IMG/VR virus record: IMGVR_UViG_2617270889_000001
Reading direction: 5' to 3' (one strand)
Length of the DNA: 64,000 nucleotides
Source of the DNA: a virus
In this document: piece after piece, positions 6,564 to 63,040 of the stretch
Layout: every line of letters starts with the position of its first letter
Position numbering within the stretch: position 1 is the first letter of the stretch
The notes under the pieces: model-generated
Databases searched by the model: none
What the model saw: only the letters and a program-made list of their open reading frames with translations
What the model was told of the DNA's origin: nothing
Translations under genes and position numbers: made by a program

Positions 6564-7220
6564 ATGATTGATAGAGAAACTCTTGGTAAAACTGTTCGCC
6601 GTGCCTTGGTCAATTGGGCAAAAGAGCAAGAAAACCCTCCTACTTTTTGGAATGACTCGGATGAGTATCAAGAAGTAAACGAACATATTGGCGAAGCCGT
6701 GCAACGAGCAATATTGAGAGAGTTTGCCGACCATGTTGTTTGGTTCAGTGGTGACGACGAGCGCCATGCCATACCCTCAGAAGGGATGGTAAAACTAATC
6801 AACTACGTAGAAAAAGAACTAAACCAAAGCAACGTTAATCTTGCCAATTTGCACAGTTCAATTGTTTGGGGTATCCGTAAAGTTAAATCTGATGAACGTG
6901 ATATTGCAGTCAGATTTTTAGCTTTTAAGGATGACACTTTAGCTTACTTACGAGCACTGGTTTTAATTACCGAGATGGCCAACGGCGACCAAACCCACGC
7001 TGAGAAAAGAATTCTGCTTAATCATCTAATCAAGCAATTAGAAGGGGCGATCGTTAAAATTCGCAACGTTGAAAACTATCTCCTTACCAATTATTGGGAA
7101 AGGGAGGATGTTTTTAAATCCGATTATCCGAACCGATATTGGCGAGAAAAGGTTGCTCAGTTAGAAGAAGAAATTAAAAGTTTGAAATCTGGTAAGCCGC
7201 CAAATGAATCACCATTTTAA
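6564..7220 (+). CDS. Phage hypothetical protein (helical)
   Basis: 218-aa ORF in the operon, overlaps the next gene. Confidence 0.7.
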   Translation: MIDRETLGKTVRRALVNWAKEQENPPTFWNDSDEYQEVNEHIGEAVQRAILREFADHVVWFSGDDERHAIPSEGMVKLINYVEKELNQSNVNLANLHSSIVWGIRKVKSDERDIAVRFLAFKDDTLAYLRALVLITEMANGDQTHAEKRILLNHLIKQLEGAIVKIRNVENYLLTNYWEREDVFKSDYPNRYWREKVAQLEEEIKSLKSGKPPNESPF

Positions 7221-10200
7221 AATTGGCTCAATCGCCTCTGGTATGGGAATGCACCTGCATGGATTGAAGCAAATTGGTGGTGTCCCTGTGTGGGCAATCG
7301 AATGTGATGAGGCGATCGCCCACTGCTACCACCAAAATCACAAAAGCGAAGTCTACATCAAAAAAGTTCAAGACGTTGCCCCATCTGATTTGGCAGATAT
7401 TGATTTGTTAATAACTACCCTCAGCTGTAAAAATGCATCCATTGCCAACGCTAACCGGGGCGAATTGCCAGAAGATGCAGCAGCCGGGATAGCCACCGGT
7501 GACATCATCAAAGCCTTAAAGCCCCAGTACTTCATGCTTGAGAACGTCTGGGGATACCGCAAATTCGAGTCTTTTAAACAAATTCAAGCGGCGCTGGATG
7601 AGTGTGGCTACTATTCCCGCTTTTACAAATTCAATTGCCGTAATTGGGGTATTGCTCAAAGCCGCGATCGCCTTTATCTTTTGGCAAGCAAGGATGGTAC
7701 TTTCGCTGATCCTGTACCTCCACAAATCTCAGAGGTTGGGTGGTATGAGGTGATCGCTGACTTGATTGATGAGCTACCAGAAACAACACTTGCACCTTGG
7801 CAGTTGCGTAAGTTTCCAGAGTTAGCCCGTGAAGCTAATTCTTGTTTAATCCCAGACCACTCTAATTGGACAAATTTGATTCCTCAGTCTGCCCCTTGCT
7901 CAACAGTTAGAGAAGGACACCAAACCTTTAAAGCTTTAATCAAACGTGCCGGTGGGGGAAGAGATAGCGATCGCCTTTACCAAAGTGATGAACCATCTTT
8001 CACTATCCGAGCGATGGGTAGAAAGTCTGATAATCACTCTCGCATAGCCGACGCGATCGTGGGTGACAGAATTGTTGCGGTGACTCCTCGCGCTTGTCTG
8101 CGGTTTTTTGGCGATAAAGAAACAGCAGATAATATCTGGCTTCCTCCTACCAAGTCGCTAGCGAATGAGGTAGTAGGCAATGGCGCTAGTTGGGTGATGT
8201 TCAAAAGCCTATTTGAGCATTTATCCCAGTCTGTGCCGACGTTGCTTTCCATCGAATCAAACTCCTTGAGGGATATTTCGACTTCGCTCAATACAAGTGG
8301 TGGCGAAATGGTTGAGAACTTTTTTCAGATAGGCGATCGCGTTGAACTTGTATGCGATGTTTTATTTGGTGATATAAACCTCAAAGCTAAAAACCCCAAT
8401 GCCAAACTAGCCATTGCTGGAGAGTGCGCCGAAGTATGCGGCGTTCGAGGTACAAGACTTGCTCTTAGTGTTGGCGGTGAGCCATTTGATTGTCCCATTA
8501 GGTTAGTGAAAAAAAATTTAGATGTTCCTACCGCCGATACCGCAATGTTTACGTCAGAGCAGGGTATAGGGACTCAGGTAGAGAATAATTCTCATTCTGA
8601 ACCTTGCCCCCCTCCACCCAAAGAATCAGATAAGTGGTATACACCACCCAATATTCAGGATTTACTCACGCAGGTACTCGGCGCAGTTGACCTTGACCCT
8701 TGCGCCGATGACGGTAAACATATCAAAGCGGCAAACCATTACACCGCATCTGATGACGGACTTGCTCAGGAGTGGTACGGACGGGTGTTTATGAACCCTC
8801 CCTATTCATGCCCTGGCAAGTGGATGGCGAAATTGCAAGCAGAGATAGAGGCTGGAAGGGTAACGGAGGCGATCGCCCTGGTTCCGGCAGCGACAGATAC
8901 CAATTGGTTGCACCCGCTCCTTGACACTCAACCCATCTGCTTTTGGAAAGGCCGCATCAAATTTTTAGATACGAACTATCAACCAAAACTCTCGGCTAGG
9001 CAATCACACTGCCTGCTGTATTGGGGTACTAATGCACAGAAATTCAAACAAGTTTTTGACGAAGTTGGAACTGTGAAAAATATAAGCCAGTCTGCTCTTC
9101 TCTGCGAGACGCTGCGCGATGGGGTTTCCCCAAGTGGAAGAACTGGCGTTGAATCTGAAACTGCTTGGAATCCTGCTGATTTTGGAGAAGTACCACGCAT
9201 TGCTGATGGCGATCAACTAACGATTTTTTATGACACCCATGAGCCACCAGACCCCGACAATTACCCGTCTATCGCGGCGTATGAACAGGCATGGCAGGAA
9301 TGGGAGAAAAAGCTGACTAGGAGCAACGTAAAACAGGGAGTTCACGTTGTTGACCAGCTTGGATCGTTGGGGATTATCAAAGAAAACTTGGGGTTTGGGT
9401 TTGTCGTTGATTGGTTGGGTGACGCTGTTGCTTACAACTGGGAGCGAGACAGCGATCGCATTGATACTTTTAAGATCGCAAATCAAGGAAGGATGAAGGA
9501 GGAAGGAGGAAGAAGTGATGAAGTTGAATCTGAATCATCATCCCTCTTCCCGACGCTCGCAGACTCGCTACCGCTACGCTATCTCCCCTCTTCCTGCGAA
9601 CTTCCCAATCAAGTTTTTAAAAACAAGGAGCAAAATACTGTGACAACTTTCCAATTTTCTGGCACACAGGCGATCGCCTCTCAAATTGCCCAATTACAAG
9701 AGCAATTGAACAAACTCACCGCCTCTTTAGAGCCATACCAAGAGTGCGAACAAAAAGCTGAGGAATTGCGCCAAGAAGTGGCGCAATTTGGGCGGGAAAT
9801 GGTAGATAAGGGAATTCCCCAGAATGACATTTTAAGTTGGGCGCGATCGCTTTATAGCGCGGCTAGTGGTGTGGAGTTAGTGGAGAGTGATAGTAGTGTA
9901 ATTGCTGCTCAAAATGAAATTATTAGTGAATTGAAAGCCGGAAATCATGTATTGCGTGAGCAATATAGCGAAGTCATAAGACAAAGAGATTTACTAATAA
10001 AGCAGGTTGAAGACAATGATAATGATATGGATGTGCAACTAGCGGAACAACAATTAATACCAGAAGTGGAAGCTTCAAACAAAGAACTTACCGAAGGCGT
10101 AGCAAGCTTTACTGAAGGCGATCGCGTTTGTGTAAATGCTATACACGAATTAGAACACTTACTCGAAAGACTTGGTACAGTAGTTGGAATAAAAGGTAAC

Positions 10201-10746
10201 TCTATTGCCGTACTTTTTGACGCAACAGATAATGAAGGTCAGCACGAAATAATTACCGATAGAAGTAATTTGGTGCTACTTTTGAAAGCTACTCCAGACA
10301 ATCACGCACACATTAAAGCTTCTAACTTTATAGCTACTATTCGTACCAAAGCCGGAGCAAATAACATTAATTGGCAGAATATCAGCGAACTGTGCCAAGG
10401 CAATCATCTTATTTTAAAAGAATTGCTTTTAACGACCACTACAAAAATTCAAAAAGAACTGATTCAAAAGCTACCTCAACTGATGGCTGATTACATTGCT
10501 GAAACTGGTGACATTACAGATATGCAGCTTGTTGGCGATAAATTTAAGTCTGAAGTTGAGGCGTTGTTAGAAGTAAAAAAGTCTCTGGTGTATCAAGCTG
10601 GTGATTGGGTAAAAAGTACAGAATCGGGTGAAATCTGGCAAGTACGAAATTTTGACGGTGAGTGGTTGTCGGTGAAACGAGACAACAAGATTGGCTCACT
10701 GCATAAATCAGAAGTTGAGTTGATTCAACAAGAAATCGCTGCTTGA
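7204..10746 (+). CDS. Multidomain DNA methyltransferase: C5-cytosine MTase + KOW + phage N6-adenine (Dam-like) MTase + coiled-coil/KOW tail
   Basis: C5 motifs IASGMG (I), TTLSCK (IV), MLENV (VI), QSRDRLY (VIII), VVGNG (X); N6 motifs KWYTPP, DLDPCA, WYGRVFMNPPYS. Confidence 0.85.
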   Translation: MNHHFKIGSIASGMGMHLHGLKQIGGVPVWAIECDEAIAHCYHQNHKSEVYIKKVQDVAPSDLADIDLLITTLSCKNASIANANRGELPEDAAAGIATGDIIKALKPQYFMLENVWGYRKFESFKQIQAALDECGYYSRFYKFNCRNWGIAQSRDRLYLLASKDGTFADPVPPQISEVGWYEVIADLIDELPETTLAPWQLRKFPELAREANSCLIPDHSNWTNLIPQSAPCSTVREGHQTFKALIKRAGGGRDSDRLYQSDEPSFTIRAMGRKSDNHSRIADAIVGDRIVAVTPRACLRFFGDKETADNIWLPPTKSLANEVVGNGASWVMFKSLFEHLSQSVPTLLSIESNSLRDISTSLNTSGGEMVENFFQIGDRVELVCDVLFGDINLKAKNPNAKLAIAGECAEVCGVRGTRLALSVGGEPFDCPIRLVKKNLDVPTADTAMFTSEQGIGTQVENNSHSEPCPPPPKESDKWYTPPNIQDLLTQVLGAVDLDPCADDGKHIKAANHYTASDDGLAQEWYGRVFMNPPYSCPGKWMAKLQAEIEAGRVTEAIALVPAATDTNWLHPLLDTQPICFWKGRIKFLDTNYQPKLSARQSHCLLYWGTNAQKFKQVFDEVGTVKNISQSALLCETLRDGVSPSGRTGVESETAWNPADFGEVPRIADGDQLTIFYDTHEPPDPDNYPSIAAYEQAWQEWEKKLTRSNVKQGVHVVDQLGSLGIIKENLGFGFVVDWLGDAVAYNWERDSDRIDTFKIANQGRMKEEGGRSDEVESESSSLFPTLADSLPLRYLPSSCELPNQVFKNKEQNTVTTFQFSGTQAIASQIAQLQEQLNKLTASLEPYQECEQKAEELRQEVAQFGREMVDKGIPQNDILSWARSLYSAASGVELVESDSSVIAAQNEIISELKAGNHVLREQYSEVIRQRDLLIKQVEDNDNDMDVQLAEQQLIPEVEASNKELTEGVASFTEGDRVCVNAIHELEHLLERLGTVVGIKGNSIAVLFDATDNEGQHEIITDRSNLVLLLKATPDNHAHIKASNFIATIRTKAGANNINWQNISELCQGNHLILKELLLTTTTKIQKELIQKLPQLMADYIAETGDITDMQLVGDKFKSEVEALLEVKKSLVYQAGDWVKSTESGEIWQVRNFDGEWLSVKRDNKIGSLHKSEVELIQQEIAA
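9121..9138. repeat. Small dispersed repeat core GGGGTTTCCCCAAGTGGA, in-frame inside the MTase gene
   Basis: Identical 18-mer at 38784-38801 and a related copy near 29313. Confidence 0.7.
9542..9594. repeat. 35-bp small repeat element flanked by 9-bp direct repeat CCCTCTTCC
   Basis: CCCTCTTCC at 9542-9550 and 9586-9594 flank cgacgctcgcagactcgctaccgctacgctatctc; the hairpin at 1560-1580 shows the uninterrupted form. Confidence 0.65.
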
Positions 10747-56595: not shown

Positions 56596-56982
56596 TTATT
56601 CTGAATACAAAAGTTGATATCCCAAGCTTAACCGCCTAACGAATTCTTCAGTATTTCGATTGCCCCAGACTGGATTTTTATGATCGATAAGCCAGTTTTG
56701 GGAATTGTGACAAATCTGTGTGTGGCATCTTTCGCATGTTGGAAACCAGTTGCTTCCTAAATTATTTTTACCGTAACTGGTATGGTGTAACTCATTATAC
56801 TTTCGTCTCAAACAGCAGCAACACAAGGAATCATACTTTTCAAGAAACTGACGAGCGATCGCACACTCTCTACTGTAATTGTTGCCGTAGCGCACCGAGT
56901 AATCTAATTGCGGTTTAGTAGGTACTCGTGCAGTAGTTCTACTTGTTTGCTGCTTGGTGCGTGTCCCATCATTTCTTCCCAT
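56596..56982 (-). CDS. HNH endonuclease-like protein
   Basis: CCCC...ELHHTSY...NWFPTCERCHTQICH. Confidence 0.7.
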   Translation of the reverse strand: MGRNDGTRTKQQTSRTTARVPTKPQLDYSVRYGNNYSRECAIARQFLEKYDSLCCCCLRRKYNELHHTSYGKNNLGSNWFPTCERCHTQICHNSQNWLIDHKNPVWGNRNTEEFVRRLSLGYQLLYSE

Positions 56983-58592
56983 TTTTCTTTGATTAGGTCT
57001 GGTGTCGGCACATTCAAGAGTTGGTCTGCCCAGGCAACTAAATCTTTGTGCCAGTCGGTTTGAATATCCTCTGGAGATGCTAAAGGAATAGTTAGAGGAA
57101 GTTGGTTGATTTGTCGCAGTCCTTTTGGCTTATTGCCCTTTTTCTTAAATTGCTTGTAAGTGTGGTGGGTGGGATGTATGGCCAAGGATTCGGGAACAGC
57201 GCCACTGACAATGCAGCTGTAGGCTAATTCGTCAACGTGTTTCTTTCTGGGGTCATCCTTTTTCCATTGTTTAGCTAACTGTCTTGCAGTGGCATTGAGA
57301 GCTATTAGGAGATAGTTATTCCTCATTTGTGCCGAAATATTTAAATCGTTGGCGTTAGACGACTGGTTTAAGGCAATGAAAATTATTTTGTATTTTCTAC
57401 CTTCTGAACCTAATCGTCTCAGTGCTAGTTCAATAATTTCTTTGTTTGAGAAGCTATCTAGGCAGGCATTAATCTCATCACCAAAGACAATGATTGTCGG
57501 TTCTAAATCTAGCTGCTGTTTATTAAGTTCTCGCCGGGAATCGAGTAGCTCAATCAGTAGAATTAATTGCTGTTCAATTAGCGCGAAATCAGCGATCGCA
57601 TGGATGCCTAGTTCACCCCACAAGACATTGACATTGGCATGAGGGTCAAGAGCTAAAACTTGTGCTGGCTCATCTTTGGTCAACCACCCTGCGACCCAAA
57701 CCGCCACGGAAGTTTTACCACTACCAGAATTACCAGCAACAATAATCCCTACTGCATCATCAACTAAATCCCGCCAGTCGTAGAATTCAAGCTCACCCAC
57801 TTTTCCGGGACATAAAGCTTCGTAATCAATTTCTTCGGTCAACTCCAAAGGAACAGGGACAGCCGATAAAAGCCTATTTGCTTCACTCCTGTGCTTTGCT
57901 TCTTCTGCCTCACATTTAGCTATCTCTGCCTTAAATTTAGCCAACTGTAGCAAACGCTGATACTCAGCTAATTGATTGTGCTTTTCAGCCTGCTCTCGGT
58001 CAAACTCGCGCTCACCTTCACTCTTATCCTTGATGCGAGTAATTTGGTCGTTGCGAGTTACCCGATCCTTTATGTACTCAGTTTCAACAGCGATCTTGTG
58101 TGTAGTGATTTCGCGCTGTTGTTCGTTAAGTTGAATTTCTTGATTTAAATCAGTTTTCAACTGCTCAAAATACGCTACAAACTCTTTTTTGTAGCGTTGC
58201 AATCGCTTTGAGGTCAGCAGTGTGCTACTGGACAATAAAATTAAACTTGCCATTGCCCAATTCTTAGCAATAGGATTTGTAGCCGGAATTGTCCGCAGCC
58301 GCGTTGCTTTGTCAGACAGAATAAAAGTTCCTTGCGGTTGAAAACGCGGATTAGTGGGTACGTAGTTTTCTTGTCTCCAATATCCTTCTGGGATAATATA
58401 CTGCTTGTCTTGAGTGCAATACTTAACAGCGCGATTATTATTTTTTTTGGGCTTAAAGCAGAATTCAATCACATCATATTTAGTGCCAGACATTGAATAG
58501 ACTGACAATCCTAAGCCCGTCAAAGACAGAGCGATCGCCAGCCCAATGCTGAATTGATTCTGTTGTTTGAACAACTTCAACCAATCCATCAA
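56904..58592 (-). CDS. Membrane-anchored FtsK/HerA-superfamily ATPase (TraB/coupling-protein-like)
   Basis: Two N-terminal TM segments, coiled coil, Walker A AGNSGSGKT, Walker B IVFGDE, EGRKY...ALNQS. Confidence 0.8.
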   Translation of the reverse strand: MMDWLKLFKQQNQFSIGLAIALSLTGLGLSVYSMSGTKYDVIEFCFKPKKNNNRAVKYCTQDKQYIIPEGYWRQENYVPTNPRFQPQGTFILSDKATRLRTIPATNPIAKNWAMASLILLSSSTLLTSKRLQRYKKEFVAYFEQLKTDLNQEIQLNEQQREITTHKIAVETEYIKDRVTRNDQITRIKDKSEGEREFDREQAEKHNQLAEYQRLLQLAKFKAEIAKCEAEEAKHRSEANRLLSAVPVPLELTEEIDYEALCPGKVGELEFYDWRDLVDDAVGIIVAGNSGSGKTSVAVWVAGWLTKDEPAQVLALDPHANVNVLWGELGIHAIADFALIEQQLILLIELLDSRRELNKQQLDLEPTIIVFGDEINACLDSFSNKEIIELALRRLGSEGRKYKIIFIALNQSSNANDLNISAQMRNNYLLIALNATARQLAKQWKKDDPRKKHVDELAYSCIVSGAVPESLAIHPTHHTYKQFKKKGNKPKGLRQINQLPLTIPLASPEDIQTDWHKDLVAWADQLLNVPTPDLIKEKWEEMMGHAPSSKQVELLHEYLLNRN

Positions 58593-59161
58593 TATCTCCT
58601 AATCATCTTCCAAAGAACTGGTAATAAGGCCAAACCTAAAGATGCTCCCATCACAATCTGCAATTGCAAGTTGATAGTCAGTCCATCGGTAGGCTGTACT
58701 TTGATTTCGTAGTTTTTTACTTCAACTTCAAAAGCTTGAATTGATTCATTGGCATATTGCATAAGCTGTCTGTATTCCTTAGTGGTATTCCATGAAATAC
58801 CAGCAGAAGCTATTAACTTACTACAGCCAAATACTACTCGTGAAATATCTCGTACTTTGTACTCGTTTGAAAGGTCAATTCCAGCTTCTCCGATGTCAAT
58901 CATGGCGGGAATGGAGCCAAGAGAAAATCCCAACAATCCCGCGCTCATTGCTCCTAAGCCCAAATCAATGGCTAGGAGACATAGAGTTATGTTGGCAGAA
59001 TTCGCAGTCAATGTAAGTAAAAAATTACGAATTAGTGTAAACGTCGCACAAGCAGATAAATAATCTTTCTCTAGACGATCTAAATAATCTTGATATTCAC
59101 GAGGCAGTTGACTTGCTTGGGAGTCCTCCTGCTGGTCTATAACGTCCGTTTCAAGTAACAT
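58589..59161 (-). CDS. Multi-pass membrane protein
   Basis: Hydrophobic hairpin LCLLAIDLGLGAMSAGLLGFSLG and C-terminal TM; overlaps the ATPase start. Confidence 0.7.
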   Translation of the reverse strand: MLLETDVIDQQEDSQASQLPREYQDYLDRLEKDYLSACATFTLIRNFLLTLTANSANITLCLLAIDLGLGAMSAGLLGFSLGSIPAMIDIGEAGIDLSNEYKVRDISRVVFGCSKLIASAGISWNTTKEYRQLMQYANESIQAFEVEVKNYEIKVQPTDGLTINLQLQIVMGASLGLALLPVLWKMIRRY

Positions 59162-59187
59162 TGGTTTATCAAGAAAAAATTTTTACT

Positions 59188-59219
59188 ACCCACTGCAATC
59201 TGACGTGATTGCAGTGGGT
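59188..59219. terminator. Perfect 13-bp stem-loop
   Basis: ACCCACTGCAATC-6nt-GATTGCAGTGGGT. Confidence 0.6.
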
Positions 59220-59223
59220 TTTA

Positions 59224-59877
59224 TTAAATACCTAAAGCGTTTCGTAGTCGCCGGATTATCCCCATTGGGCTTTTTACCTCTGCTTGATAATCGCGTTTGT
59301 GAATTAGAGATAAATCAGCGTTGTCTCCATGCTCTAAAAGATGTTCAGCCACTTTAAGTTCATAGTTTTGGTTTTCCTGCAACTGCTTTAGCTGGATACG
59401 CGAACCTTGTTCAAGCAGGCGAACTCGTCCTTCAACATCTTGGATTACCATGTCAGCAAACAGCTTGGCTCTGTTGTAGTCAATTGCCCAGCTATGCCTT
59501 CCTTTTTCCATCTCAAGTGAGGCTTTGAACTGTTCCCGCAGTTCATCCATATCATCCAAGTATTTGATGTTGGCAAAGCTAGCTTGACGCTGGGCTTTTT
59601 GAATATCCACCTCGGCTTTGCTGCCACTGGCAACAAATTCACCCAAGAATTTATTCCAGTCGCTCTCATTCTTAATTTTCGTTTTTACCGTTTCCGTAAT
59701 TGCAGGCATGAGGGCGGCAGCCATTTTCCCCTCTTGATACATCGACCCCAGTTTTTGAAGCGTGGCTTGATCGCCTGTCAATGCCTTCTGTAATTCCGCC
59801 ACAGATACACCAGCAACCCTTTGTGCTGCCTTACCTGCCTTGGTTCTGGTATTGATACGGGTTTTGATGTGTTTCAT
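59224..59877 (-). CDS. Coiled-coil protein
   Basis: Helical, Q/K/E/A-rich. Confidence 0.7.
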   Translation of the reverse strand: MKHIKTRINTRTKAGKAAQRVAGVSVAELQKALTGDQATLQKLGSMYQEGKMAAALMPAITETVKTKIKNESDWNKFLGEFVASGSKAEVDIQKAQRQASFANIKYLDDMDELREQFKASLEMEKGRHSWAIDYNRAKLFADMVIQDVEGRVRLLEQGSRIQLKQLQENQNYELKVAEHLLEHGDNADLSLIHKRDYQAEVKSPMGIIRRLRNALGI

Positions 59878-60014
59878 AGAAAATTCCTTGAGTTACAAAC
59901 AACACAAGTGGAGTCAGCAACAACAGCAATAGCAAATTGAATTTATGCTGTTGACGATACTCTGCGAAAGTGTCCACCGGGGAGTATCCCCGTGGCGCAT
60001 TTCGCGCTACTTGC

Positions 60015-60575
60015 TCAACTAGGGACTTTGAAGAGGTTGAGAATTTTTGCTTCTGTGGTGCGAAATTTGTCTCTAGCTTCTTCTATGCGACCAGAGAAAG
60101 CTGTAGCCTTGCTATTGAAGTGTTGGTTGGCTTCTTGTAGGCGCGTGACTAGATACTGTTCCACCTCTTGCATCATTTCATCAGTCTGTTGCAAATCTTG
60201 GTCAACTTGGTAATCAACCCAGGCGACGATCGCGGATTTGATGCGATCCTTGAGCGAGGCGCGATCGCTTAATACCCAGTCCATTTTTTGGCTAATCGAC
60301 TGAACTTCTTCAACCGATAAACTCACTTCTAAAGTGGAAGCAACTTGTTGAATTAAAGTTTGTTTTTGGGTATGACTCAATTCATCATTTGTACTTGCTG
60401 GAACTATTTCACTTGAGCCTGACAGTTCATCAACAATCTTAGATATCAAATTCTCTGTAGGTTCAACGTCGGCGTAGTTGCTGACAATAATATGCTTTCT
60501 GATTTGGTCAAGAGTAAATCTTTTACCCCGGTTTTTTAGTCGAGTTTGAATTACTTTAATTTTATTTTGGTTCAT
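60015..60575 (-). CDS. Helical protein with C-terminal coiled coil
   Basis: Coupled to the 60578-60970 ORF. Confidence 0.65.
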   Translation of the reverse strand: MNQNKIKVIQTRLKNRGKRFTLDQIRKHIIVSNYADVEPTENLISKIVDELSGSSEIVPASTNDELSHTQKQTLIQQVASTLEVSLSVEEVQSISQKMDWVLSDRASLKDRIKSAIVAWVDYQVDQDLQQTDEMMQEVEQYLVTRLQEANQHFNSKATAFSGRIEEARDKFRTTEAKILNLFKVPS

Positions 60576-60577
60576 GG

Positions 60578-60970
60578 TTATGCAAATAATTTGTACAAAA
60601 CTTCTCCTAACTCAGCAATAGAATAAGTACCGTCGTTTCGATAACTTATGTCCATGCTTCTAAACGCTCGATAAAACTTATGTTTCGATAAAGACGGACA
60701 CTTTTTGTAGATGTAATCCTTGATAACCGCGCCCTTAACAGAGCCATTTAGATCGGTGGCTGACTCTACCACCAAATTCAATACATGAGATGCGATCGCC
60801 TTCCTTGGTGCGACCCTTTTACACTTAGCGACAAACCGCAAATTATCAATGGTGAGCGGCAACCGAGCATTCACTAACTGATTTTTTAGCTCTTGCCATT
60901 GGTAAGCACGGACTGACTTCCCTAAGCAAGTTTCATAAATTATTCTTGTTCTCTCCTTCTGTAGGGGCAT
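60578..60970 (-). CDS. Basic putative DNA-binding protein
   Basis: RBS AGGAGAG; K/R-rich; SKHKFYRAFRSMDI helix-turn-like segment. Confidence 0.6.
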   Translation of the reverse strand: MPLQKERTRIIYETCLGKSVRAYQWQELKNQLVNARLPLTIDNLRFVAKCKRVAPRKAIASHVLNLVVESATDLNGSVKGAVIKDYIYKKCPSLSKHKFYRAFRSMDISYRNDGTYSIAELGEVLYKLFA

Positions 60971-60990
60971 ATTCTCTCCTTTTTAAAAAC

Positions 60991-61216
60991 TCAGTTGCAA
61001 CTGACATTTAGTGCAACTTCTTATGCTGTAAGCGCTGTGAACAATTACAAGAGATTTAGTCAACACTTAATGCAAGAAAAGTTGCAGTGCGCTGTCAAAT
61101 ACACTTTTTAGCATCCGTGTGGTGCAACGAAGAAATGAAATAATTAATGGTGCGGGTGCTTTGCACGTTATGCAGGCAGATAGTGCAACGACGGATTTAG
61201 AACAGATAATGCAAAG
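60991..61216. repeat. Intergenic cluster of TGCA(AC) motifs with a 14-bp palindrome
   Basis: TCAGTTGCAACTGA (60991-61004); GTGCAAC at 61011, 61122 and 61183; further TGCA cores. Confidence 0.55.
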
Positions 61217-61606
61217 CTAAATTGTAAAATCTGAACAATATTGAGGTAATTCAGGATGAACTGCACAAGGTAAATAATTATTAGCAGAGTAATAGATACA
61301 CCCATTGCAGTGATGTTTTGTTTCTAGTTCAGCAATCATTTGTTCTACTTTTGCTTCTGCTAACTTGTCTGACACTGCTTGAGAAATTGCCGCCACGCTG
61401 ATTGTGCATAAACCGATAATTCCAGCATTACCTCCATAAACCACCATCTTTTCAATAGTTAACTCATGAGGTTTTAAGGCATCAGCAAGCCGTGTAACTA
61501 CTTTGCCTGATAGCCCTAGTATTAAAATCCCAGCGCCTATTGTAGTTACGGTTAATCCCAATCCTCCTAGTGCGGTGGGAATAAGGTTAGATAACTTTTC
61601 ACGCAT
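61217..61606 (-). CDS. Two-TM protein with C-terminal Cys motif; start revised to ATG 61606
   Basis: Two hydrophobic helices; HCNGCIYY...LPCAVHP...CSDF. Confidence 0.65.
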   Translation of the reverse strand: MREKLSNLIPTALGGLGLTVTTIGAGILILGLSGKVVTRLADALKPHELTIEKMVVYGGNAGIIGLCTISVAAISQAVSDKLAEAKVEQMIAELETKHHCNGCIYYSANNYLPCAVHPELPQYCSDFTI

Positions 61607-61970
61607 ACTTTTTACGCCTTGTGCGTTTAGGTTTCGACGGCAGTACAAACCAAATAACTGCCCAAAATATTAAAAGTGATCGCAACAAGAAATTAACCCA
61701 AGGGCGTAACGGAGTTTTCCAAAATATCCACCAATGAATAATCCAGTGTGCAAACTTAGACAATGGAACCGTGTCACGTAATGGCATTTCTTTTTGGAAA
61801 TTACGATAAGTCAAATGATGCACGTTCAGACTCTTTGCCCACGGGAATACGACACAGTGATATTTTGTCAATGCGTGGCATTTCTTACACTTTTCACGCC
61901 ATTCATCTGAATTGATGTAGACATAATACTGAGGCGATGCCTTCGGCAACCCCTTCGGGGAACGGCTCAT
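61599..61970 (-). CDS. HNH-like protein with a hydrophobic C-terminus
   Basis: YINSDEWREK...CVVFPW...VHHLTY...HWIIH. Confidence 0.65.
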   Translation of the reverse strand: MSRSPKGLPKASPQYYVYINSDEWREKCKKCHALTKYHCVVFPWAKSLNVHHLTYRNFQKEMPLRDTVPLSKFAHWIIHWWIFWKTPLRPWVNFLLRSLLIFWAVIWFVLPSKPKRTRRKKYA

Positions 61971-62200
61971 GCTTTTGCCACCTCAGCTAGCGATTGAGTT
62001 AGTACTTTGGCTGCTTGCAATAACTTGTCCGGCTCCTCTGCGCTTGATGCAGCCGTCAACAACAGATCGCTAGCCTCGTGTATTGTTTCAATGAGTTTGT
62101 TGATAATTGCTTTCTGGTTTTTAATCTTGGCGATTAATTCGCTTTGGTTATAGACAGGATTGTTGTTGAACTGGGTTTCTAAGTCTTTGAGCGTGTCCAT
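61967..62200 (-). CDS. Small helical hypothetical protein
   Basis: ATGA-coupled to the next gene. Confidence 0.6.
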   Translation of the reverse strand: MDTLKDLETQFNNNPVYNQSELIAKIKNQKAIINKLIETIHEASDLLLTAASSAEEPDKLLQAAKVLTQSLAEVAKA

Positions 62201-62203
62201 ATT

Positions 62204-62581
62204 TCAAGAATTAAATAAATTCAGTTGTCCAAGGTATTCGCGTTTCAGCATTTTCTTGTGTGCCATTGCTTTCAAATCCATCCGACAGTGACACACGGAA
62301 CATAATGCTTTTAGATTGCAGCGCGTACAATCCTCTGGAATATGGTTCAAGTGAGCGGTCGTCAGTACAAATCGAGTAGGTTTAGCATTAATTTCGTGCA
62401 GTAAGTCACAGGAGTCTGTGCAATGAACTTTTGGCACAACTCGGTCAATGAACTCACTCAGAGTTTCCCCAACTTTCCTGCACTCCCGCCCACACTCTTC
62501 GCATTTCCAGTTGGCTTCGGTTTTGACTTGTAGGGCTATCTCCTGCCAACGGGAGGGATAGCGATCGCGCTGCATCGGCAT
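62204..62581 (-). CDS. HNH endonuclease
   Basis: RYPSRWQEIA...WKCEECG...LTTAHLNH...NLKALCSVCH. Confidence 0.85.
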   Translation of the reverse strand: MPMQRDRYPSRWQEIALQVKTEANWKCEECGRECRKVGETLSEFIDRVVPKVHCTDSCDLLHEINAKPTRFVLTTAHLNHIPEDCTRCNLKALCSVCHCRMDLKAMAHKKMLKREYLGQLNLFNS

Positions 62582-62770
62582 TTAGTCATCCTGCTTTGTT
62601 CTTTTGTGTAAATTTGCAAATGCGGGTGATTCGTGTTCTCTCTCAAGAATTTGCCTAAGTAGCGTGGCCATCGGGATCTTTTTCCACTCAGCCACAGCTT
62701 GAAATTCTTCGTAAGCCTTCTCCGAAAGGGTGATGGTCATCTGAAATCTATCTTTGTCTTTGTCTGCCAT
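62582..62770 (-). CDS. CopG/ribbon-helix-helix regulator (start 62770 or 62803)
   Basis: QMTITLSEKAYEEFQAVAEWKKIPMATLLRQILE. Confidence 0.75.
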   Translation of the reverse strand: MADKDKDRFQMTITLSEKAYEEFQAVAEWKKIPMATLLRQILEREHESPAFANLHKRTKQDD

Positions 62771-62867
62771 TGGCTGTAAACCGTGTAATTCCATCACATT
62801 ATCCATGCATTTGCATCTCCATGCACTCAATAGCTTAAGAATTTTCTAAAACAAAGCATAACACATT

Positions 62868-62894
62868 CATCACAATTGCGTGGTAATTGTGATG
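62868..62894. promoter_or_regulatory. 10-bp-arm inverted repeat upstream of the RHH operon (candidate operator)
   Basis: CATCACAATT-7nt-AATTGTGATG; related half-site CATCACATT at 62792. Confidence 0.55.
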
Positions 62895-63002
62895 GATATG
62901 AGAAGACAGTATGATAAAACAATGGCAGCAATGATTAAACCAAAATTCCAAGTAGGCGATCGCCTTTGCTAACGCCAGCGATCATAAAAAGTGACCTTTC
63001 AG

Positions 63003-63040
63003 GCAAAAGCCCTCCTGAATAACTTTTCAGGAGGGTTTGC
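63003..63040. terminator. Stem-loop downstream of the 63237 gene
   Basis: CCCTCCTGAA-6nt-TTCAGGAGGG. Confidence 0.5.

Follow-up and report, generated by a model that had tools for sequence, protein, structure and literature searches.

In Streptomyces, the TraB protein and its Spd partners spread double-stranded DNA (dsDNA) along the hyphae (PMC4447253). TraB/Spd systems sit on tiny plasmids and integrated elements (PMC4447253) and also on the plasmid-phage pZL12, which requires a tra gene for conjugal transfer (PMC3583192). In filamentous cyanobacteria, natural DNA transfer is poorly understood, and most of the plasmids are typed as non-mobilizable. Here, we analyze positions 56,596–62,894 of a 64,000-nt window of viral DNA (IMGVR_UViG_2617270889_000001; "the window" is this whole stretch and supplies all position numbers). 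The region holds eleven minus-strand genes, g1–g11, within a prophage of a filamentous cyanobacterium, and its g10 product is a membrane-anchored ATPase of a new family. By analogy, we tentatively read the locus as a TraB/Spd-like dsDNA translocation module for virion-independent transfer or spread, with a probability of about 0.4. A first annotation made from the sequence (hereafter, the initial annotation) had offered DNA transfer and phage defense as alternatives.

The g10 gene (56904–58592) encodes an FtsK/TcpA-like ATPase, as judged from fold, topology and alignment. The protein is divided into a first transmembrane (TM) helix (TM1, residues 14–32), an extracytoplasmic Cys-containing loop, a second TM helix (TM2, residues 108–126), a coiled-coil stalk extending to residue ∼245, a P-loop core (residues 255–500) and a three-helix tail (residues 507–559). 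Its topology is N-in, loop-out and ATPase-in. The AlphaFold model has a pLDDT (predicted local distance difference test) of 80, with the core above 88. In this model, a helix (residues 2–33) leads into a small β-containing loop with two conserved cysteines, and a helix starting at residue 109 continues into a helical hairpin that ends at ∼245, followed by the core, which is the only ATPase domain, and three C-terminal helices. The tail, modeled with a pLDDT of 80–87, was aligned with the C-terminus of FtsK. This small helical domain probably binds DNA, and the modeled alignment points to DNA, rather than protein, as the substrate.

Foldseek matched g10 to TcpA at 1e-6. Fold comparison gave figures of 15.1 for TcpA, 14.5 for the FtsK motor, 14.1 for EccC, 13.3 for EssC and about 12 for HerA, with RecA-like folds and the STIV2 packaging ATPase B204 lower, at about 10. 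Matches in the AlphaFold DB include FtsK proteins, with alignments reaching g10 residue 558–562, as well as ICEBs1 YdcQ and a Streptomyces plasmid protein, and the nearest clusters consist of unnamed cyanobacterial and "FtsK domain-containing" proteins. Invariant positions in an alignment of 36 sequences are G287-N-S-G-x-x-K293 (Walker A), D372/E373 (Walker B), R393/R399 and Q410-S411 at the end of a strand; read as blocks, the last two correspond to an invariant RLGSEGRK and an NQS. According to Iyer et al. (2004), the FtsK-HerA signature reportedly comprises Walker A, Walker B, an arginine finger and a conserved polar residue (Q) at the end of the sensor strand. The initial annotation had called g10 a two-TM FtsK/HerA ATPase; the two TM helices and the FtsK-HerA-superfamily motor stand, and the model places the fold nearer to FtsK, TcpA and EccC than to HerA.

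At the sequence level, g10 has no Pfam match at E ≤ 0.1 and is not claimed by any NCBIfam or PHROG model. Among the 36 aligned relatives, DUF87 (PF01935) is found in 15 and FtsK_SpoIIIE (PF01580) in 11 (best E 0.0039), all below threshold; a single distant family member (P0154) passes DUF87 with a score of 25.6 vs a cut-off of 23.2. A sequence-profile search of the PDB with g10 returned P-loop-level matches only, the best being Cdc6 (1.3e-3). As no Pfam, NCBIfam or PHROG model covers the protein, and as it combines the invariant motifs with FtsK-like fold matches, g10 belongs to a new family in the FtsK branch of the FtsK-HerA superfamily, with the same anchor-linker-motor-tail plan as FtsK, TraB and the coupling proteins.

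The ATPase gene belongs to a conserved block. Comparison of loci fetched around homologues (L001, L005, L006/L009, L007 and L008) recovered the six families of g6–g11 (60970–56596), with their order unchanged, from five further Nostocales prophage-like loci (six with the window), namely from Aulosira, from Tolypothrix and from three loci of Nostoc or metagenomes. Since this order is kept in all of them, the module is more than a chance grouping. The part of the operon that recurs as a unit is g6–g11, with g1–g5 coming and going between loci. Every subtype has small membrane proteins encoded directly beside the ATPase. The Tolypothrix locus carries, upstream, an NblA (phycobilisome degradation) gene (L006 3631–3810) and a sigma-70 gene.

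The gene g9 (58589–59161), to which g10 is translationally coupled, encodes a 190-residue polytopic membrane protein with three to four hydrophobic segments. Its TGA stop shares bases with the ATPase ATG (TGATG), with AGGAG in front. The 217-residue g8 protein (59224–59877) is modeled as a long antiparallel coiled-coil hairpin, for which no PDB fold match was found at E ≤ 0.001. The 186-residue g7 protein (60015–60575) matches phrog_33840 (1e-7; unknown function) and, below threshold, KfrA_N, and is assumed to be helical from weak coiled-coil-type matches. The first gene of the conserved core, g6 (60578–60970), encodes a 130-residue basic protein (pI 9.8), for which we infer DNA binding. Searches of the ESM Atlas with g8 and g6 returned only unnamed clusters and weak DnaD-like leads. 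These results agree with the initial description of g9 as a multi-TM protein. The two coiled-coil proteins named there are represented by the modeled g8 and, from weak matches only, by g7, and of the basic, DNA-binding-like character ascribed to g6, the first half is borne out by its pI.

At the other side of the motor, g11 (56596–56982) overlaps the 3′ end of the ATPase gene by 79 nt and encodes a 128-residue Cys/His-rich HNH-like protein. The six loci show 56–86% identity in g11, and the pattern CxxC...HH...CxxCH...CH is kept in all of them. The initial annotation had recognized HNH genes in g2, g4 and g11. Of these, g2 is clear (phrog_1571, 1.5e-23), and g4 and g11 are HNH-like at the level of motifs, as neither has a hidden Markov model (HMM) match; the label rests on motifs also because hhalign among the g2, g4 and g11 families did not support common HNH ancestry. 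A nuclease-like gene adjoining an ATPase of the same superfamily is a feature shared with the HerA-nuclease systems (SIR2-HerA and DUF4297-HerA), and it is a point in favor of a defense or exclusion function, in which the membrane motor would sense or seize incoming phage or plasmid DNA and the HNH-like g11, g4 and g2 would destroy it, protecting the host. We consider this function unlikely. The signature proteins of known anti-phage systems (HerA-SIR2/DUF4297, Septu, Zorya and Wadjet) were unmatched in PADLOC, which gave no system-level match and only short, low-score generic ones: short ZorE-HNH matches to g2, a JetC coiled-coil match to g7 (7e-5) and a mad8 match to g10 (1.3e-4, with no stretch passing). 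Defense, as first proposed, therefore gains nothing from these weak generic HNH and coiled-coil matches. Additionally, the g10 fold is nearer to FtsK/TcpA than to HerA, and the HAS-barrel N-domain is absent. The plasmid and distant subtypes retain the membrane proteins and not the HNH gene, and a set of six conserved genes that includes two coiled-coil proteins is unlike the described HerA systems.

The family profile covers 995 clusters at 50% identity (351 at 1e-10). All named members are cyanobacterial (Nostoc, Anabaena, Aulosira, Tolypothrix, Rivularia, Richelia, Calothrix, Fischerella, Dendronalium, Symploca, Planktothrix, Phormidium, Pseudanabaena and Annamia), and nearly all named hosts belong to filamentous genera, spread over at least three orders. 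The genes are found in tailed prophages, in elements that combine an XisA/C-type integrase with a VapE/DUF3854 primase and a helix-turn-helix (HTH) repressor, in an element of Nostoc PCC 7107 that encodes DnaB and an actin-like protein, and on 21 plasmids (from Planktothrix, Nostoc, Annamia and Pseudanabaena), 17 of which are typed as non-mobilizable. The ATPase family is borne by mobile elements of mostly filamentous cyanobacteria, and the cassette remains a backbone function of very different elements of these hosts. Our literature searches found no paper on the g10 family. A compact integrated element of ∼17 kb on the chromosome of Rivularia sp. PCC 7116 (L026; also L010 and L011) carries the ATPase together with an XisA/C-type integrase, a DUF3854/VapE primase, KGK, HTH_3, a 4-TM protein, Amidase_3, a collagen-repeat protein of 703 residues and three 109-residue paralogues. 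No capsid or terminase was recognised in the Rivularia elements of this type, for which PHROG scans gave collagen-repeat matches only.

The plasmid pCC7120delta of Anabaena/Nostoc PCC 7120 encodes proteins of 223, 192 and 575 residues that are homologous and syntenic with g8, g9 and g10 (E of 6e-7 for g8 with the 223-residue protein and 5e-7 for g9 with the 192-residue protein). The prophage and Nostoc plasmid versions share 40–42% identity in the outer loop (residues 12–115, window ∼58248–58559) and only ∼25% in the motor; on the pCC7120delta protein, the extracytoplasmic loop is the part best conserved with respect to g10 and the motor the worst. Such unusual conservation of a loop over a motor suggests contact with a conserved envelope partner. 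A plasmid-type paralogue is also present on another contig of the same genome as the window (G001:C5:25134–25514, L034); its 632-residue frame has an N-terminal TM-loop-TM domain that is 35% identical, like the pCC7120delta protein.

The plasmid relatives also bear on a role in segregation or maintenance, in which an element-specific FtsK/SpoIIIE would clear or distribute copies across closing septa, or anchor replicating DNA to the membrane. In fold and domain order, g10 has its nearest cellular counterparts in FtsK and SpoIIIE, the operon starts with an actin-like (ALP_N, ParM-type) gene in both pCC7120delta and the Nostoc PCC 7107 element, and the sub-threshold KfrA_N match of g7 and the repeat array ahead of g6 (see below) fit the same role. 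However, an integrated prophage needs no partition system, and the 12.6-kb Pseudanabaena plasmid, which carries the ATPase, small membrane proteins and the CyRepA1 replication gene, has a ParA-like gene besides the family ATPase. The conserved extracytoplasmic loop, in turn, suggests envelope contact over a purely cytoplasmic task. Compared to FtsK and SpoIIIE, g10 lacks the alpha domain, has two TM helices rather than four, and is encoded by mobile elements and not by the core genome, and the Pfam FtsK_SpoIIIE scores of its relatives remain sub-threshold. We regard segregation as quite improbable.

The window corresponds to positions 3197203–3261202 of contig C1 of genome G001 and, together with its right flank (L004), holds one prophage of ∼72 kb. 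The prophage is of the temperate siphovirus type, from a filamentous cyanobacterium, and the cassette is accessory to it. Its insertion splits a PLD-like/ComEA-like host gene (PLDc_2 and HHH_3), of which the N-terminal part lies at 441–1508 of the window and the C-terminal part at L004:10372–10932; a large serine recombinase sits at the right end of the prophage, in the stretch that also includes this gene part (L004:8994–10932, ∼window 72790–74730). The left arm encodes an 1180-residue protein (7204–10746) that fuses C5 cytosine and Dam-type N6-adenine methyltransferases. The remaining genes form a minus-strand tail-to-head block (tape measure, terminase, capsid and MuF), a short plus-strand block (portal and an HTH_17 excisionase-like gene) and a long minus-strand block that begins with the serine recombinase at the right end and continues through HD, DUF5131, Rep_1, PNK3P and FHA genes into the stretch studied. 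As the prophage has an ordinary terminase, the cassette is not its packaging motor; a packaging role for g10 of the PRD1 P9, STIV B204 or A32 type was rejected, at least as the sole such motor.

The absence of a relaxase and of VirB4 had been remarked upon in the initial annotation, and neither family was found among the eleven proteins in Pfam, PHROG and NCBIfam scans. That remark overlooked a same-strand gene that lies just beyond the window end, ∼4 kb upstream of the cassette (L004:2579–3178, ∼window 66376–66975), which encodes a Rep_1 (pC194/pUB110-type rolling-circle) initiator (2.6e-35) and adjoins the PNK3P and DUF5131 genes. This protein may initiate phage replication or act as a relaxase-like nicking enzyme. 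Type IV coupling proteins (TcpA, VirD4 and ConQ) have two N-terminal TM helices and one FtsK/TrwB-type nucleotide-binding domain, an architecture that g10 shares. The nearest of them in fold, TcpA of Clostridium perfringens pCW3 (PDB 6o1x/6o1w), is an FtsK-like type IV coupling protein with which g10 is 17% identical, with no sequence-level membership. TcpA acts together with a relaxase and the complete Tcp conjugation apparatus; the eleven proteins include none of these. Further points of difference from TcpA are the ∼110-residue coiled-coil stalk of g10, its conserved extracytoplasmic loop of 75 residues and its helical tail at the C-terminus. Assignment of g10 as the coupling protein of a type IV secretion system (T4SS) was rejected, since the eleven proteins include no VirB4-type ATPase, mating-pair-formation gene or relaxase, with Rep_1 upstream as the only related gene.

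A cassette of related design is annotated in the Planktothrix phage PaV-LD (HQ683709), in which ORF122L–ORF129L include ORF127L, a two-TM FtsK/SpoIIIE-annotated protein among small membrane proteins, in a filamentous host. It is not a detectable member of the family: ORF127L has no family-HMM match, and BLAST aligned the P-loop only (E 0.007). Its gene adjoins an M23 peptidase gene, unlike the cassette described here. The claim that nothing of this kind had been described in cyanophages, therefore, needs softening. The M23 neighbor of this analogous, non-homologous cassette hints at an envelope device of the infection cycle, serving genome entry or exit, lysis timing or, like a minimal EssC/EccC ATPase, the export of phage proteins. 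Such a device is very unlikely. The family is also carried by small plasmids devoid of virion or lysis genes, and it has no member in 50,697 sequenced phage records searched with the window ATPase and with Planktothrix-type and Symploca-type members. The type VII secretion ATPases EssC and EccC, to which g10 was compared and not assigned, have three tandem ATPase domains compared to one in g10, and no match to a WXG100-like family was found; an FHA gene, which bears on this comparison, lies upstream of the cassette. The C-terminal tail, aligned with that of FtsK, points to DNA and not protein as the substrate.

With the packaging-motor, T4SS-coupling, known-defense and type VII secretion readings each failing in a defining feature, a translocase module is what remains. 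What the analysis shows is a conserved gene order, the fold, the topology and a confinement to mobile elements of mostly filamentous cyanobacteria; the substrate, the direction of pumping and the biological role are inferred, along the following lines. Two helices anchor g10 in the cytoplasmic membrane, and the coiled-coil stalk holds the motor off the membrane. Translationally coupled to g9 and co-inherited with the presumed coiled-coil g7 and g8, the basic g6 and the HNH-like g11, g10 may form a ring at the membrane that recognises the dsDNA of its own element, with the GTTGCA array ahead of g6 as a candidate site for loading. Element DNA would then be pumped through a channel built with the small membrane proteins. 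The result would be a particle-free route into an adjacent filament cell or a recipient, as for TraB and Spd in Streptomyces, with the ribbon-helix-helix (RHH) protein g1 and the upstream palindrome presumably controlling the operon. The mobile-element distribution, the flanking small membrane proteins and the absence of a T4SS lend indirect support, by analogy, to the DNA-transfer proposal of the initial annotation. In its wider form, the proposal would be of a T4SS-free, conjugation-like system, common to the plasmids, integrated elements and prophages of filamentous cyanobacteria, that pumps dsDNA through septa or into recipient filaments, which we consider rather doubtful.

Several points weigh against a translocation module. 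No accessory protein shows sequence likeness to Spd, T4SS or relaxase proteins in Pfam, PHROG and NCBIfam, and the element already makes virions, given its genes for terminase, portal, capsid and tape measure. Between cells of a Gram-negative filament, two cytoplasmic membranes and the septal wall would lie in the path of the DNA, and the window's copy of the cassette encodes no recognisable wall hydrolase; the non-homologous two-TM ATPase of PaV-LD, by contrast, has the M23 peptidase gene beside it. The HNH-like genes next to the ATPase also fit a nuclease-based defense. As for the hosts, one "Synechococcus" metagenome-assembled genome (MAG) and one Obscuribacterales MAG are possible exceptions to the filamentous habit. 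The family is also rare (present in 6 of the 401 cyanobacterial genomes sampled across the phylum), so the filamentous-host restriction rests on few, related hosts.

The operon that contains the conserved block appears to be its own transcription unit, since g1 is preceded by a terminator-like hairpin (63010–63035, minus strand; 10-bp stem with 6 GC pairs and a T-rich tail), which ends the upstream FHA and 172-residue-protein genes, and by an inverted repeat (62862–62900; 16-nt arms, 7-nt spacer, 88% complementary). This repeat lies just upstream of g1 and is the candidate operator noted initially. All eleven leftward open reading frames (ORFs) of the operon first outlined are present on the minus strand, and g1–g10 were also found by a public gene caller. 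The head gene g1 (62582–62830; 74 residues from the ATG at 62806, the ORF opening at 62830) encodes an RHH/Arc-like small regulator, as had been suggested, albeit with weak matches (Pfam RHH_1, E 0.025; PHROG phrog_3180, Arc-like repressor, 1.7e-4). It is followed by g2 (62204–62581), the phage-type HNH endonuclease of 125 residues, and g3 (61967–62200), a 77-residue acidic protein of no known family with homologues in L006, L007 and L008; weak coiled-coil Pfam matches suggest the helical character first attributed to it. The 123-residue basic g4 protein (61599–61970) has a degenerate HNH-like motif (HH..Y..N...H) and one predicted C-terminal TM helix, with no profile match in Pfam, PHROG and NCBIfam scans. 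The g5 protein (61217–61648; 129 residues from the ATG at 61606) has two TM helices and a Cys-rich C-terminal tail, as initially described.

Between g5 and g6, an intergenic spacer of ∼245 bp (60971–61216, minus strand) contains an array of GTTGCA(C) repeats around a TTGACA-like hexamer. Exact GTTGCAC occurs three times within 180 bp, vs 12 times in the whole 64 kb. The repeat positions are kept ahead of the g6 homologues in L001, L005, L007 and L008, which differ in their protein-level divergence. The array is a candidate internal promoter/operator or protein-loading site. A hairpin with a perfect 13-bp stem between g8 and g9 (59188–59219) is a possible attenuator or RNA-stability element that might set different levels for the soluble (g6–g8) and membrane (g9–g11) parts. 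The stretch is represented among the contigs of 19 RNA runs from 6 studies.

If the cassette is indeed a dedicated membrane DNA pump, it would provide a mechanism for gene flow among filamentous cyanobacteria; no unicellular isolate is found among the named matches. It would also add to Streptomyces a second example in which multicellularity shapes the movement of mobile DNA. A tailed phage would gain a second, particle-free means of spread, by a hitherto unknown route of horizontal gene transfer convergent with TraB/Spd. Even if the role proves to be defense or segregation, g10 represents a large family devoid of a Pfam model. The homologous g8-g9-ATPase trio on pCC7120delta makes the question directly testable in Anabaena/Nostoc PCC 7120.

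Comparison with the Streptomyces TraB/Spd systems (pSVH1 and pIJ101) is architectural only, as none of the eleven proteins has sequence homology to them in Pfam, NCBIfam and PHROG. The cyanobacterial host is of the Gram-negative type with an outer membrane, and the overlapping HNH-like gene and the two coiled-coil proteins have no Streptomyces counterpart. TraB is a membrane-associated motor with a C-terminal winged-helix domain; for g10, two TM helices and a three-helix tail are predicted in the model. Nevertheless, both systems combine a single membrane FtsK-like motor, which has a putative DNA-reading tail, with several small membrane and DNA-binding-like proteins and no T4SS. Short direct repeats are found nearby, as for the clt site of TraB, and the GTTGCA(C) array (60971–61216) is a candidate clt-like site. 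Like TraB/Spd, the cassette is carried by small plasmids, by integrated elements and by a phage of a multicellular, filamentous bacterium.

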